A stretch of DNA of 64,000 bases from Thermodesulfobacteriota bacterium. Its GTDB lineage: Bacteria > Desulfobacterota > Binatia > Bin18. Positions 60,511 to 64,000 of the stretch are shown here, piece by piece. The notes under the pieces were generated by a model. That model worked only from the letters and a program-made list of their open reading frames with translations, ran no database searches and was not told the DNA's origin. Where the stretch lies: the NCBI GenBank assembly GCA_964291405.2, contig OZ219926.1, positions 1,664,001 to 1,728,000 of the forward strand, written 5' to 3'. The first letter of the stretch is position 1. Each line of letters starts with the position of its first letter. The position numbers were made by a program, and so were the translations under genes.

Positions 60511-61777
60511 AAACCGGCCGGCGGGTCAAAACGGTCAGTCCGACTCTTCCGGCGCTGCTCGGGCGACGCCCCCCATCCAGATTGCGTATATTGGACCGGA
60601 CGGGCAAATTTTCGTGCGCCGCTTTCCGTCAGACACGATCCACCAGCTCACCTGGAGTTGGCAGGACCAGCAAGCACAGTATCCTCCACAGGGTCCTCAG
60701 GATCCGGAGCCGCAGCCTACTCCACCCTCCGTGACTTATTCCTGGCCAACCTGGTCGCCAGACAGTCAACAGCTCGCCTGCTTTGCCCGACAGGGTGAAG
60801 ACGGGCCGGCCAGCGTGTATACGGTTGCCGCCGATGGCGTGGAGTCCTGGGAGCGGGCCAACCTGGGGCAAGGCGCTCCGATTTATGGCAACTGGTCACC
60901 CCAGGCTGACATGTTTACCGTCCTGGTGCAGCGCAGCGACCGCCAGCTTGCGTTAGAAACGATTGGTATAACCCAGCCCGGCAAGACCCGCACCCTGCTC
61001 ACCGGCGCACCGCTTTTCTGGTCGTGGGCTCCGCAGGGGCAGCTTGTGGCGGCGCACGTGGGTGACAACGAAGCCGGGCGGGTTGTGCTGATTGAGGCTG
61101 CAACAGGAAGCATTGTACGGGAGGTCAGCACCAGTCCAGGGACGTTCCGCGTTCCGGTCTGGTCCCCGGACAGTGAGTTACTCACCTATGTGGAACGGGG
61201 GACCGACGGCAACCAGACCCTACGCCTGTTCGATATCCAGAGCGGCGAGAGCGCTCCTGTTTGTCGGGCCAGCGGCATGACCGCGGCGCTGTGGTCACCG
61301 GACGGGCAGGCGCTGGTCTTTAGCAGTACCCAACGCCAGAACTCACTGCTCTCTCCCGCGCTGCATCTGCTCGACCTGTCCACCGGCCAGACTACGACCC
61401 TGCTTGAAACGCCGGTCGCGGGATTCCTGTGGGCTCCACAGGGAACTCACTTGGTCTACCTGAGCGTAGACGTACAACACAGCCAACTCAGGTGGCATCG
61501 ATATGACCGAACAACCGGAGAAAGCCAGGAATTGATCCGGTTTCTACCCAGCAGAGAGCAAACGCTCCAGTTTTCATTTTTCGACCAATATGCGGCTTCT
61601 CATCCCTTACTCGCGCCGGACGGGGCGCTGCTGACATTTACCGGCCATCTTCCCGACGCGGCTGCGCAACCGGCCACGACCGCGCCCACGGTCTACACCC
61701 TGCCCCTCACGCCCCCCTTTACACCGCAGGCCATCGCCTCGGGTTCCTTTGCCTGCTGGAATCTGCGGGCAGGGTGA
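60503..61777 (+). CDS. TolB/PD40-like beta-propeller protein
   Basis: Repeated WSPD/WAPQG motifs. Confidence 0.85.
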   Translation: MSENRPAGQNGQSDSSGAARATPPIQIAYIGPDGQIFVRRFPSDTIHQLTWSWQDQQAQYPPQGPQDPEPQPTPPSVTYSWPTWSPDSQQLACFARQGEDGPASVYTVAADGVESWERANLGQGAPIYGNWSPQADMFTVLVQRSDRQLALETIGITQPGKTRTLLTGAPLFWSWAPQGQLVAAHVGDNEAGRVVLIEAATGSIVREVSTSPGTFRVPVWSPDSELLTYVERGTDGNQTLRLFDIQSGESAPVCRASGMTAALWSPDGQALVFSSTQRQNSLLSPALHLLDLSTGQTTTLLETPVAGFLWAPQGTHLVYLSVDVQHSQLRWHRYDRTTGESQELIRFLPSREQTLQFSFFDQYAASHPLLAPDGALLTFTGHLPDAAAQPATTAPTVYTLPLTPPFTPQAIASGSFACWNLRAG

Positions 61778-61913
61778 AGGTCCGCTCCTGTGGCCCTCTT
61801 GCAGAAAGCCGGGAGAGCAGATTAGTATCGGGGCACTTTCTGAAAGAGTAAAAATTCAGACCTACTCATCGGAGTTCCACCAACTCAATTGTTCAATTCT
61901 TCAGGCCAAAGTG

Positions 61914-62711
61914 ATGCCAGCAGACCCCTCCCGTGTTGACTTGCTGCTCCAGTATGCGTTGCTCGTTGCTGGAGAGCAGGATGAGTTCTTAGACCGCCGG
62001 CTCGGACCAATTCACCTGATTAAGTATGTGTATTTGGCCGACCTTTTCTATGCGAAACGAAACAACGGCGTTACCTTTACCGGAACAGAATGGCAATTTT
62101 ACAAATTCGGTCCGTGGTCCCAATCGGTTTACGAGCGTATTGAGCCCGCACTCAGCGCTATCGATGCGGAGAGACAGTCTTTTGAGAGCAATTATGAAGA
62201 GAAGGAGGATTGGGTTCGTTGGTCTCTGAGCGATGAAGGGCAATTAGAAGAGATAGGGAACCAACTACCATTTGCGATAACTTCGGGACTGAAAGCAGAT
62301 GTGCGGCAATTCGGGCAAGACACGCAGGGCCTGCTGCATTACGTTTATAGGACGGAACCCATGCTATCTGCCGCGCCCAATGAGCTTTTGGACTTTACAG
62401 TTGTCACCCAGAACATCTCAATGGATGAACCTGTTACAACACCGCTGAGAATGGATAGCTTATCGAACAAGAAAAAGAATCAATTCAAAGAGCGAATGCG
62501 GGAATTACGAGATCGGCATAAAAACAGAGAGCGCAGAGAGCACAAGCTGATTAACCCCGTCGCAGACGCCCGTTATGACGATGTTTATACCGAGGGCATG
62601 AACTGGCTCGATAGCCTCGCCGGCGAGCCATTACGGGAAGGTGAACATGTCGTCCAATTCTCGGACGAGGTGTGGAAATCCGCTACCAGGAAAGGCGAGG
62701 ATGTATCCTGA
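61914..62711 (+). CDS. Panacea/SocA (DUF4065)-like antitoxin-domain protein with a C-terminal extension
   Basis: HLIKYVYLADL...GVTFTGTEWQFYKFGPWS matches the KLxYxAD...G..TG..W/Y....GP pattern; more AT-rich than upstream genes. Confidence 0.7.
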   Translation: MPADPSRVDLLLQYALLVAGEQDEFLDRRLGPIHLIKYVYLADLFYAKRNNGVTFTGTEWQFYKFGPWSQSVYERIEPALSAIDAERQSFESNYEEKEDWVRWSLSDEGQLEEIGNQLPFAITSGLKADVRQFGQDTQGLLHYVYRTEPMLSAAPNELLDFTVVTQNISMDEPVTTPLRMDSLSNKKKNQFKERMRELRDRHKNRERREHKLINPVADARYDDVYTEGMNWLDSLAGEPLREGEHVVQFSDEVWKSATRKGEDVS

Positions 62712-62754
62712 GGACTGCGTACAGTCAATTATTCAGCCAGGCGATTGGTGGTGA
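62701..62754 (+). pseudogene. 5' stub (MYPEDCVQSIIQPGDWW*) of the gene coupled to the Panacea-like gene
   Basis: ATG overlaps the end of the upstream gene and follows GAGG; stops after 17 codons at the junction with the opposite-strand stub. Confidence 0.45.
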
Positions 62755-62764
62755 TGTCCAACAT
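62729..62764 (-). pseudogene. possible 5' stub of type I hsdM (MLDITTNRLAE*)
   Basis: ATG is 1 bp outside the left IR, where hsdM would follow hsdR. It resembles the MLDxxTKRRID starts I recall for methylases paired with this hsdR type (recall only). Confidence 0.35.
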
Positions 62765-62815
62765 AGTCTGAACTGTGATTTGTGGGATTGGTAGGATTAG
62801 CAGGATTTAGGGGAT

Positions 62816-63226
62816 TTATGGAGTGCGTTGATTCTTTTGGTTGAGCTTCTTGTTGGTGACTCGTTTGAATTCGAGGCTTCTGGCTCCAAAATTGATGAGC
62901 AAGCCGACTTCCAGATCATACGCCTCCAGGTAGTTGATGGCCTGGGCCAGATGAACGTCTTCCAGTTGGATAATAGCCTTCAATTCCACACAGACAACAT
63001 TACCCACCAGGAAATCCACCCGTCTCGTCCCGATGTGTTGGCCTTTGTAGTAAATCGGCATGACATGTTCGCGGCTGAAAGGAATGCCTTGGTCCGCCAG
63101 TTCGATTTCTAATGCCCGCTGATAAATCACCTCCTGAAAGCCATTCCCCAGAGCCGAATGCACCGTCATAGCACACCCGATGATCTGGCCGGTCAGCTCC
63201 GAATACTTATGCTCCTTTCTCATCAT
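62816..63226 (-). CDS. GxxExxY protein (PD-(D/E)XK nuclease superfamily)
   Basis: IIGCAMTVHSALGNGFQEVIYQRAL, RRVDFLV, VELKA, AQAINYL, GLLINFG. Confidence 0.93.
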   Translation of the reverse strand: MMRKEHKYSELTGQIIGCAMTVHSALGNGFQEVIYQRALEIELADQGIPFSREHVMPIYYKGQHIGTRRVDFLVGNVVCVELKAIIQLEDVHLAQAINYLEAYDLEVGLLINFGARSLEFKRVTNKKLNQKNQRTP

Positions 63227-63251
63227 CACAGCCCGTCTCTTTGCACGAAAA

Positions 63252-63449
63252 TCACGGCACCGGCAATCCATCTTCTTGGAGCGCGTCGATGTACCCCTCA
63301 ATCGCCTCTTCGATATTGGCAATCGCCTCCTGCTTCGTCGCCCCTTGGCTGATGCAACCGGACAGGCTTGGGCATTCGGCGACCCAATAGCCATCTTCGC
63401 CGGGGTAGATCACCACTTGTCTCGTAGTTTCTCTGATCCAATCAGTCAC
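63252..63449 (-). CDS. HicB-like antitoxin (short, possibly decayed; no hicA nearby)
   Basis: RQVVIYPGEDGYWVAECPSLSGCISQGATKQEAIANIEEAI. Confidence 0.8.
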   Translation of the reverse strand: MTDWIRETTRQVVIYPGEDGYWVAECPSLSGCISQGATKQEAIANIEEAIEGYIDALQEDGLPVP

Positions 63450-63453
63450 AGCC

Positions 63454-63634
63454 TAGAGCGTTTTACTATAGGCTGTAGCCCTGCCGTTACGTGCTCGTCA
63501 TGTCGGACGCGCTCCGGCATCCCTGCTTCGACTTCGCTCCGCTACGCTCAGCACGAACGGCAGACCGTTAGTCCTGAGCGGCAGGCGCAACGCGCCTGAA
63601 GTCGAAGGGCTACACGGAATCGTAATTTGCTCTA
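63454..63634. mobile_element. IS630-type MITE (non-autonomous) carrying a REP-like palindrome
   Basis: CTAG at both ends with TA duplicated. TIRs TAGAGCGTTTTACTATAGGCTGTAGCCCT and reverse complement TAGAGCAAATTACGATTCCGTGTAGCCCT; no transposase. Confidence 0.8.
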
Positions 63635-63677
63635 GCCCTCTTCATCCATCAATCCCATAAATCTCGTAAATCACAGT

Positions 63678-64000
63678 TCAGACGAATTGGTTCAACGACA
63701 CATAGTCCTTCACATACTCGGGAATGAGCGCGCGGTATCTCTCCGGCACGGCCCGGAAGTCGCCGATGGAAAAAACCGGAGAGGTGGCCAGCCTGGCGAA
63801 CTGCCGCTTGTCGATGATGTCACGGGTGTAGCCGTCGGTGGTGTACGCCTTAAAGTAGGTCTTGATAGCCGCGACGGAGTCCGCCCGTGTTGGCGTATGG
63901 TCGGTGACAAACTTGGTAAATTCTTCCTCCAGCAGTTCGTCCTTGGATTTGAAGCGCGGGATGATGTCAAAGACTCTTTCCAGGATTTCACGCAGGGTCA
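63678..64000 (-). CDS. C-terminus of a probable type I restriction endonuclease R subunit, 5' end outside the window
   Basis: Manual translation: TLREILERVFDIIPRFKSKDELLEEEFTKF...IKTYFKAY...IPEYVKDYVSLNQFV*. The ORF is clear; the HsdR assignment is from recall. Confidence 0.65.
   Translation of the reverse strand, partial: TLREILERVFDIIPRFKSKDELLEEEFTKFVTDHTPTRADSVAAIKTYFKAYTTDGYTRDIIDKRQFARLATSPVFSIGDFRAVPERYRALIPEYVKDYVSLNQFV

Follow-up and report, generated by a model that had tools for sequence, protein, structure and literature searches.

A repeat-armed GxxExxY nuclease-fold gene between restriction gene remnants of a Binatia genome: a possible decaying copy of a selfish operon-junction cassette

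The genome of a Thermodesulfobacteriota bacterium of the class Binatia (4,947,718 bases in three contigs), whose close relatives among public contigs carry the label Candidatus Binatia, contains a gene of the GxxExxY family that is framed by two inverted arms of phased repeats. The gene lies in a 918-bp segment (62766-63683) between remnants of the type I restriction genes hsdR and hsdM, near the end of the window, the 64,000-nucleotide stretch C3:1664001-1728000 to which all coordinates refer unless otherwise given. The segment is best read as a copy, inherited vertically and now in decay, of a selfish and self-contained gene cassette, one of a family that spreads across phyla to the stop/start junctions of genes, and the probability of this reading is put at about 0.5. 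The native unit is about 490 bp long and consists of a 5' arm (GTCTGAAC followed by GATT words phased at 9 bp), a 135-aa GxxExxY open reading frame (ORF) and an inverted 3' arm. The stop codon of the gene upstream falls within the 5' arm, and the start of the following gene lies 1-5 nt past the 3' arm. The copy in this genome is immobile and eroding; cassettes of this kind have decayed repeatedly by internal deletion, and this one has been invaded by a fragment of a HicB antitoxin gene and by a miniature inverted-repeat transposable element (MITE).

Terminal repeats and phased arrays

The cassette gene is on the minus strand, and the arms are named here in gene orientation. The sequence GTCTGAACTGTGATTT is found on the plus strand at 62766-62781, where it forms the outer end of the 3' arm (...AAATCACAGTTCAGAC), and again on the minus strand at 63668-63683. 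The two copies agree over 16 bp without a mismatch, as was claimed in a preliminary description of the locus made from its sequence, and in this copy the inverted repeat continues to 33 nt at 82% complementarity. Three matches to GTCTGAACTGTGATTT were found at up to three mismatches, a number reached by none of 100 shuffles, and at up to two mismatches the 4,947,718 bases of the genome contain these two sites only.

The 9-bp periodicity reported for both ends was also present. The array of the 3' arm (62777-62817, plus strand) holds five GATT words at exact 9-bp spacing (62777, 62786, 62795, 62804 and 62813) and overlaps the stop codon of the GxxExxY ORF. The 5' arm (63638-63683, minus strand) opens with GTCTGAAC, continues with three phased GATT words inside the right end (minus strand, 63672, 63663 and 63654) and then reads GATGGATGAAGAGGG. 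Three GATT words at exact 9-bp spacing are nearly unique in the genome, with five overlapping places, four of them within this unit, and the reversed control word does not occur at all. A genome search for the repeat together with the array found both to be unique to this locus. No Rfam family matched the region 62300-64000 at E-values up to 1.

The GxxExxY gene and its product

The ORF at 62816-63229 (minus strand, 137 aa, intact) encodes a GxxExxY protein with a PD-(D/E)XK nuclease fold. It matches PF13366 at 5.2e-39 (133.7 bits, cut-off 22) and TIGR04256, the GxxExxY profile, at 4.5e-41 (139.8 bits, cut-off 35), and is the only PF13366 gene of the source genome. The family motif reads G30-F-Q-E33-V-I-Y36 in this protein, and D72, E82 and K84 are also present; the motif and the catalytic residues E33, D72, E82 and K84 are invariant in an alignment of 72 sequences. 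Purifying selection acts on the nuclease while it is intact, with ratios of nonsynonymous to synonymous substitution rates (dN/dS) of 0.06-0.22 over 15 pairs of six intact copies: that of this genome, four more from the genus and one from a neighbouring genus. An AlphaFold2 (AF2) model of the protein (pLDDT 89.2) has a nuclease-type alpha/beta core, and its nearest folds in a Foldseek search were Cas4, lambda exonuclease and Hjc, at template modelling (TM) scores of about 0.5. The modelled likeness to these enzymes appears to be only generic, covering the minimal PD-(D/E)XK core, and does not indicate a substrate. A sequence search of the PDB gave no real match (best E = 0.89), and PHROGs gave only a marginal match of unknown function (E = 0.001).

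Profile searches with Pfam and TIGR families agreed with the earlier statement that this is the one intact enzyme gene of the unit and that it is not accompanied by a recombinase. Inside the unit, only PF13366 and HicB-like families were matched (PF15919, PF21748 and, below its cut-off, PF24113); the remaining ORFs have no Pfam match, and thus no recombinase or transposase is present. No PADLOC model matched the nuclease, the HicB remnant, the hsdR remnant, a neighbouring ORF with a Panacea domain or the PF05635 ORF of related cassettes, all of which are described below. The GxxExxY family was said at the outset to be without an established function, and no paper giving one was found for GxxExxY/PDDEXK_3 proteins: supplementary tables aside, literature searches turned up passing mentions only. 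In a table of one survey, PF13366 is listed as a family of unknown function with multiple transfers (PMC3424549).

The cassette across phyla

The 80 best GxxExxY homologues (63-97% protein identity) come from Bacteroidota, Dehalococcoidia, Poribacteria, Verrucomicrobia, Calditrichota, candidate-phyla bacteria and others. A comparison between these loci is unfit as a control for inverted repeats, since all of them share their ends, and shuffles and distant windows were used in its place. The repeats and the phasing recur in the flanks of the homologues. With at most one mismatch, GTCTGAAC is present within 220 nt upstream of the gene in 64 of the 80 loci and, inverted, downstream in 64 of the 80, compared with 36 of 606 control windows (6%). 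The spacing from one GATT to the next peaks sharply at 9 (58 and 72 counts), and at least three phased GATT words occur in 31 and 33 of 79 flanks, against none of 308 controls. Simple cassettes measure 460-490 bp.

The recurrence of the structure disposes of a chance inverted repeat or an assembly artefact, a reading with a negligible probability. Its sole support is that the source is a metagenome-type assembly; at least eight relatives, each assembled independently, have this structure too, as do contigs from other sequencing runs and 64 of the 80 loci of other phyla, and shuffled sequences never match the observed repeat count. On these grounds (relatives, metagenome contigs, other phyla and shuffles) it was refuted.

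A long co-directional ORF ends near the 5' arm in 43 of the 64 loci with the 5' motif, and in 32 of these 43 its stop codon lies inside the arm, 13 times at the TGA of GTCTGAAC, 12 times in the first unit and 7 times in a later one. Near the 3' arm a long ORF begins in 24 of the 49 loci with the 3' motif, 15 of the 24 starting 2-5 nt beyond the arm, and the cassette and both of its neighbours are co-directional in 56 of the 80 loci. Location at gene junctions with this stop/start geometry, proposed originally for the single copy of the window, extends across phyla, and the seamless fit to the junction is a family trait.

Most of the cassettes are located within operons, many of these being type I restriction operons. 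Genes of restriction systems are frequent among the neighbours: HsdS (17 of 71) and ResIII of the HsdR type (12 of 71) upstream, and HsdS (8), N6_Mtase (7) and ResIII of the HsdR type (6) downstream (n = 77). The remaining neighbours are unrelated housekeeping genes, for example those for phosphoenolpyruvate (PEP) carboxylase, methionine synthase and a Nuo51-type subunit. Across the 80 loci the genes on the flanks share no homology, in contrast to cassettes of 63-97% identity. To judge from these comparisons, the repeat-armed GxxExxY unit is a real, recurrent entity that is not confined to vertical descent, and the spread of the family by horizontal transfer is supported.

The hsdR-hsdM junction in related genomes

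Relatives are denoted here by G numbers and individual loci by L numbers. The plain cassette, a GxxExxY ORF with an arm on each side that together measure about 490 bp, is found at the hsdR-hsdM junction of G002, G015, G010, G018, G005 and G025, the last of which belongs to another genus. These are the six full-length GxxExxY regions among the 13 relatives' junctions, that of G010 carrying indels. The gene is internally deleted but the arms are kept in G017 and G006, and in G022 a deletion spans the gene and extends into hsdM, so that 4 of the 9 GxxExxY copies of relatives at this junction are degraded. In G007 and G013 the junction is occupied by HicBA, and only GTCTGAACTG remains beside the hsdR stop. 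In G016 and G012 the same junction carries a PF05635 ORF (6.6e-15, '23S rRNA intervening sequence protein'), the arms of which open with GTCTGGACTGTGATTC at the hsdR-proximal end and continue with 7-bp GATTGTG units. The number of 9-bp units in the GxxExxY arms varies as well, from 1-2 in G025 to 6-7 in G015 and G018. The occupant of the hsdR-hsdM junction thus turns over, being a GxxExxY cassette, a cassette with an ORF of the 23S rRNA intervening sequence (IVS) type, or HicBA.

Identity to the copy of the window is 95.1% for the cassette and 96.0% for the adjacent 3' end of hsdR in G002, and 91.5% and 92.5% in G015. Cassette identity therefore tracks that of the neighbouring hsdR end, which argues for co-inheritance with the island. 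Exact termini in the genus were confined to the copies at this junction and two in G003, and a degenerate search of the genus allowing one mismatch gave counts not above those of the reversed control.

A second type of GxxExxY cassette, with GTCRGAATCTGGATT ends and an adjoining gene-less hairpin, is found beside an acyl-CoA dehydrogenase gene in G007 (L114, G007:C248). At this second site in relatives (L185-L193), internal deletions were seen in G005 and G002. The cassettes of the genus are seen as old residents that are eroding, and the gene-less forms are plainly products of internal deletion at the site. A divergent GxxExxY subfamily (GFDEVVYQRAFE...) is also present in the genus; it is without repeat arms and has a conserved context (L119-L123, in G008, G020, G014 and G024), and two of its four copies contain stop codons.

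PF05635 was detected in 17 of the 28 genus genomes with 29 hits (loci L155-L183), including one in the source genome (C3:3642593-3642880, L170). Of the 28 such genes that were analysed, 24 lie between phased arrays in inverted orientation. The array units differ from one to another (TAGTGG.., GGGGWTT.., GGTTCAA.., TTGRGTC.., AATTACG..). One such gene lies downstream of hsdM in G007 and G013, and in G016 and G012 PF05635 cassettes are present in genomes that have no PF13366 gene.

Later insertions in the copy of the window

The 918-bp segment had been described as one unit with a HicB-like gene as its passenger, which was not borne out by the relatives. Between the 5' arm and the GxxExxY gene there is a secondary insert of two parts. 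The first (63230-63452, minus strand) contains a HicB-like ORF (63252-63449, minus strand; PF15919, 1.6e-8) that is a remnant: compared with the intact pair of G007 and G013 its last 11 residues are gone, ACG stands in place of the ancestral ATG, and a HicA partner is missing. In those two genomes the complete HicB (68 aa) and HicA (PF07927, 1.3e-19) adjoin hsdR. The second part (63453-63637) is a 185-bp MITE-like repeat with CTAGAGC...GCTCTAG ends. It is multicopy in the source genome, with six full copies at 98.9% identity or above and about 20 partial or diverged ones, and it behaves like a classical MITE.

Both parts are missing from all eight other cassette-bearing copies at the hsdR-hsdM junction, and they interrupt a stretch, between the 5' arm and the start of GxxExxY, that G015 has in one piece. 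Metagenome contigs give the same picture. One (X3, about 96% alike) carries the plain cassette, with 63215 joined to 63646, and another (X2), identical over 271 nt, has 63456 joined to 63646 and is without the 185-bp repeat. A third corresponds to the HicB-hsdR form. Since a near-identical strain from another run is without this copy of the 185-bp repeat, its insertion is recent. On comparison of these sequences, the HicB piece and the MITE-like repeat are later insertions, and the 918-bp unit is not the native form of the cassette.

Flanking restriction genes and the island

To the right of the cassette is the 3' part of an internally deleted hsdR (63678-64000, minus strand). The whole ORF has 231 aa, reaches window-equivalent position 64373 past the end of the window and has no Pfam match; about 1.9 kb of hsdR are missing relative to G015. 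Its last codon and stop (GTC TGA, 63683-63678) lie in the right terminal repeat. To the left is an hsdM stub (62730-62765, minus strand), consisting of the ATG at 62765-62763 and 11 codons, in which homology to hsdM covers only about 26 nt (62740-62765). A type I restriction operon with hsdR, hsdM and hsdS all intact is thus not present here. In relatives, HsdR has 838-867 aa with ResIII and HSDR_N domains and ends in the same repeat, and hsdM (N6_Mtase and Methylase_S) opens at the same ATG (MLDxxTKRRIDTARDLLVGKVP); both genes are intact in G002 and G016. In G016 the arm has TGG in place of TGA, and hsdR extends to the TGA of the first unit, which shows that the arm supplies the hsdR stop codon.

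The junction fit proposed in the preliminary description therefore stands for its geometry, in that the right-hand ORF does end with GTC TGA and an ATG is found 1 nt past the left repeat, and fails for the genes themselves, which are an hsdR remnant and an 11-codon hsdM stub. Neighbours of the hsdR and hsdM type were recognized correctly, as seen from the full HsdR and the N6_Mtase/HsdS gene of relatives. The idea of insertion into an unbroken operon does not apply to this copy, where both genes are wrecked.

Restriction genes adjoin about 40% of the nearest homologues, and it could be supposed that GxxExxY is a domesticated accessory gene of type I restriction operons, in which embedded genes of this sort are known, with the arms as a region controlling its translation or transcription and with spread by transfer of whole islands. 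The parallel identities of cassette and hsdR 3' end would fit co-inheritance of this sort, as would the position of the island at a variable spot between a PD40-repeat gene and rpe, where G013 has none. Against this, the other neighbours across phyla are housekeeping genes (PEP carboxylase, methionine synthase, Nuo51-type subunit), the second cassette type of the genus lies beside an acyl-CoA dehydrogenase gene, and the flanks of the 80 loci are non-homologous around cassettes of 63-97% identity. In the window, moreover, the nuclease is intact while hsdR and hsdM are wrecked. An accessory gene is thus considered highly unlikely.

Several other features of the island were observed. The stretch from the PD40-repeat gene to rpe is a variable island (L003 1777-4392 compared with L026 of G013): the interval is only 174 bp in G013 and holds 1.2-3.8 kb of other content in other relatives. 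An ORF with a SocA/Panacea antitoxin-like domain (PF13274, 2.6e-6) at 61749-62711 on the plus strand is the next real gene to the left of the hsdM stub; it is convergent on the cassette, and homologues of it are found at the same island in G006, G005 and G017. Directly upstream of the hsdR remnant is a solitary arm of the 5' type (L003 4345-4401, window-equivalent 64345-64401, minus strand), which reads TCTGGAC CATGATT and continues with five or six units spaced 10 or 9 bp apart. With its terminal 8-mer this arm overlaps the start codon of rpe, and ATGGTCCAGA is the native rpe start in the island-free G013. The same solitary arm is present in G015 with one unit more. The type I restriction operon is decaying independently in G007 (L022; hsdR cut internally to 417 aa), G005 (L023; hsdM start deleted) and G022 (L028; deletion into methylase motif I).

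Role of the arms and spread of the cassette

For the selfish cassette, two steps may be proposed. The first is that the arms pair in the operon transcript, like the terminal repeats of 23S rRNA IVSs. With the arms paired, the cistrons on either side would stay next to each other at the foot of the stem and the ribosome-binding region of the cassette would be hidden, so that the insertion would be non-polar. The second is that the cassette nuclease recognizes the conserved outer arm as DNA, and that its cuts promote homing-like copying into cassette-free or gene-less alleles, by recombinational repair rather than by cut-and-paste. Each of the two steps is offered tentatively, and taken singly each is somewhat doubtful.

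The arms themselves follow a simple pattern. Over 34 nt, the identity between the two arms of one element (0.758) is only slightly above that with the arms of other elements (0.722, p = 8e-4). Own arms are thus barely more alike than foreign arms, which argues that they follow a conserved consensus and not complementary drift. This consensus is a terminal 8-mer and a GATT core at fixed phase with free spacers, a pattern that would be predicted from recognition by a protein and that neither requires nor excludes pairing. Pairing is plausible on physical grounds. In the plain cassette of G002, the terminal 16-bp stem is found with GGGAUU/AAUCCC extensions in both the minimum free energy (MFE) and the centroid RNA folds.

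A number of observations weigh against the reading of the segment as a copy of a spreading cassette, or against one of these steps. In the genus, PF13366 was found in 11 of 28 genomes at one locus each, with no sign of recent movement. All of the 13 relatives' hsdR-hsdM junctions are occupied, without a clean empty site among them, and no direct joint of hsdR to hsdM was listed among the contigs of four runs. Empty-site alleles had been suggested as a check on mobility, and no clean one was found at either this junction or the second site; at the latter G010, G041 and G015 retain just the last 24-27 nt of the 3' arm, and among the nine loci fetched from relatives, in four of which the far anchor was not found, no empty allele was seen. 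There is no target-site duplication at the copy in the window (flanks ...AACATA and GAATTG...), and a search of this genome for phased GATT words did not find a population of gene-less hairpins. Cassettes of the same architecture with a non-nuclease ORF, in genomes without PF13366, argue that the cassette nuclease is not the general means of insertion. As for pairing, the variable dinucleotide at arm positions 9-10 agrees in 18 of 60 elements against 21% expected, which gives no backing from covariation, and mismatches compatible with G:U pairs show no strand bias (71 sense, 67 antisense). The fold of the whole G002 cassette is no better than that of shuffles (z -0.32), the spacers between the GATT words are non-complementary between the arms, and a long hairpin is weak beyond the terminal 16 bp.

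In other phyla, a direct flank duplication abuts both ends of 7 of 59 cassettes (18-56 nt), or of 9 if two weaker cases (10-11 nt) are included, and the other cassettes, about 50 of the 59, have none, like the copy described here. The duplications are at L092, L100, L095, L056, L080, L091 and L093, and the duplicated flank often consists of the opening codons of the gene downstream or the final codons of the one upstream. Gene-less arm-to-arm hairpins lie beside or inside cassettes at L041, L054, L087, L095 and L110, and weak arm-to-arm joints, whose shorter side has just 24 letters, were seen in one metagenome run. The exact terminus occurs only 1, 1 and 9 times in three carrier genomes of other phyla.

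The duplications, the joints and the hairpins (including that of G007) could be taken as signs of a miniature transposon, as the preliminary description proposed. GxxExxY would then be a transposase that binds the GATT arrays and cuts at the GTCTGAAC termini, moving the unit by cut-and-paste or copy-out, with the hairpins as non-autonomous forms. The conservation of terminal repeats and subterminal phased words across phyla as a sequence consensus, and not as mere structure, fits such an element. The length of the duplications is, however, long and variable, and most cassettes have none. There is at most one copy per genus genome and the exact terminus is rare elsewhere, the gene-less forms of the genus are internal deletions in place and not new insertions, and PF05635 cassettes share the build without a nuclease. 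Moreover, no PD-(D/E)XK protein is known to serve as a transposase on its own. A transposon in this sense is distinctly unlikely.

Equally improbable is a nuclease with cognate repeats similar to the Ssn/SRM system, in which the arms would be recognition sites that flank the gene for its regulation or because the enzyme acts locally. The pair would serve genome dynamics or defence, for example against incoming or single-stranded DNA, and the gene would not move itself. The layout does match that of Ssn, with a gene flanked by its own motif, conservation is strong in the catalytic site as well as in the arm consensus, and the family prefers restriction operons. On the other side, there is no genome-wide population of the motif, which is confined to the gene's own flanks here and is rare in the three other carriers; no PADLOC defence model matches; the degradation of 4 of 9 junction copies speaks against a strong benefit to the host; and the same arm architecture surrounds an ORF that is not a nuclease.

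The selfish cassette reading can be widened to include the PF05635 units, an extension that is unlikely. GxxExxY and PF05635 (S23p) cassettes would then be variants, differing in cargo, of a single cross-phylum class of intervening sequences at operon junctions, with the 23S rRNA IVSs as its rRNA branch. Members of this class would be selfish single-gene units inserting exactly at stop/start junctions. Their phased inverted arms would zip in the transcript in any register, so that the upstream stop meets the downstream start and translational coupling survives, and the zipped arms would gate translation of the cassette or let RNase III excise it. The nuclease form would, in addition, spread by cutting of arm DNA and copying during repair.

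Significance

A repeat-armed GxxExxY cassette family was not found described in the literature. What is new is a repeat-bracketed gene resembling IVS and repetitive extragenic palindrome (REP) elements but with a different enzyme, phased arms and a habit of occupying operon junctions. GxxExxY proteins and the four-helix-bundle 'IVS' proteins are among the commonest small bacterial ORFs of unknown function. Should both prove to be carried by a single class of cassettes that have hairpin arms and seek out junctions, this would account for thousands of puzzling annotations, give the old question of the origin of the 23S rRNA IVSs a testable answer and reveal a route by which operons take up foreign genes and are spared polar damage. 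There could also be practical use for a PD-(D/E)XK nuclease that is specific for a simple, phased array. The series from one genus, in which a single junction shows the intact cassette, deletion derivatives, an alternative cargo, replacement by a toxin-antitoxin pair and secondary invasions, documents the life and death of a cassette and not its birth.

Comparison with known systems

The closest resemblance is to the IVSs of 23S rRNA. The IVS in helix 45 of Coxiella burnetii is reported to be 428-444 nt long, to have a terminal stem of 28 bp with an ORF in its loop, and to be excised by RNase III (PMC4990558). Cassette and IVS are both selfish inserts, about 430-490 nt in length, whose inverted terminal repeats could fold into an extended stem around a loop with a single small ORF; both have a sporadic, horizontal distribution and are located inside a longer transcript, the host function being kept. 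The likeness is increased by the sister species in which this junction carries a PF05635 ORF framed by inverted phased arrays. In contrast to the IVSs of helix 25 or 45, the GxxExxY cassette lies between protein-coding genes, its ORF is a PF13366 PD-(D/E)XK protein and not an S23p/PF05635 four-helix bundle, its arms are made of 9-bp units in phase and have a terminus that is conserved from phylum to phylum, and pairing of these arms is without support from covariation.

The REP/REPIN-RAYT systems, as presented in PMC3116915, share with the cassette a single-copy enzyme gene between inverted, hairpin-forming repeats and, in other phyla, gene-less hairpins. The families of the unit are PF13366 and HicB-like ones, and it has no Y1 HUH transposase of the IS200/IS605 type. 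There are no dispersed repeat copies, the 16-mer and the phased arrays being found at this locus only, and the arms are phased arrays at operon stop/start junctions rather than single palindromes.

Ssn, a GIY-YIG nuclease with SRM/NTS motifs, provides a tested precedent for flanking repeats that are an enzyme's own recognition sites. Of its homologues, 42% are stated to be flanked on both sides by the hairpin-forming motif, at which the nuclease binds and cuts single-stranded DNA (PMC11893778). The likeness is one of layout only, in that across phyla a motif able to form hairpins lies on either side of a small nuclease gene; the cassette nuclease is of the PD-(D/E)XK type, its arrays are phased, and hundreds of genomic copies of the motif are not present.

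Insertion sequences (IS) and MITEs also have terminal inverted repeats and short, gene-less derivatives, but the cassette has no known transposase family, a low copy number and no target-site duplication of fixed length. The free-standing homing endonuclease genes of phages are lone nuclease ORFs between genes, typically one per genome, with horizontal spread and frequent decay. The cassette is likewise a lone nuclease ORF wedged between two genes. Homing endonuclease genes are not bounded by inverted repeat arrays, and a cleavable, cassette-free allele was not identified here.

Long target duplications of variable length have been described upon insertion of restriction-modification gene complexes (PMC2853133). 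The inserted unit here differs in being a single-gene cassette of 0.5 kb, most copies of which have no duplication. The two are alike in that duplications of 18-56 nt border 7 of 59 cassettes, many cassettes being located in restriction operons.

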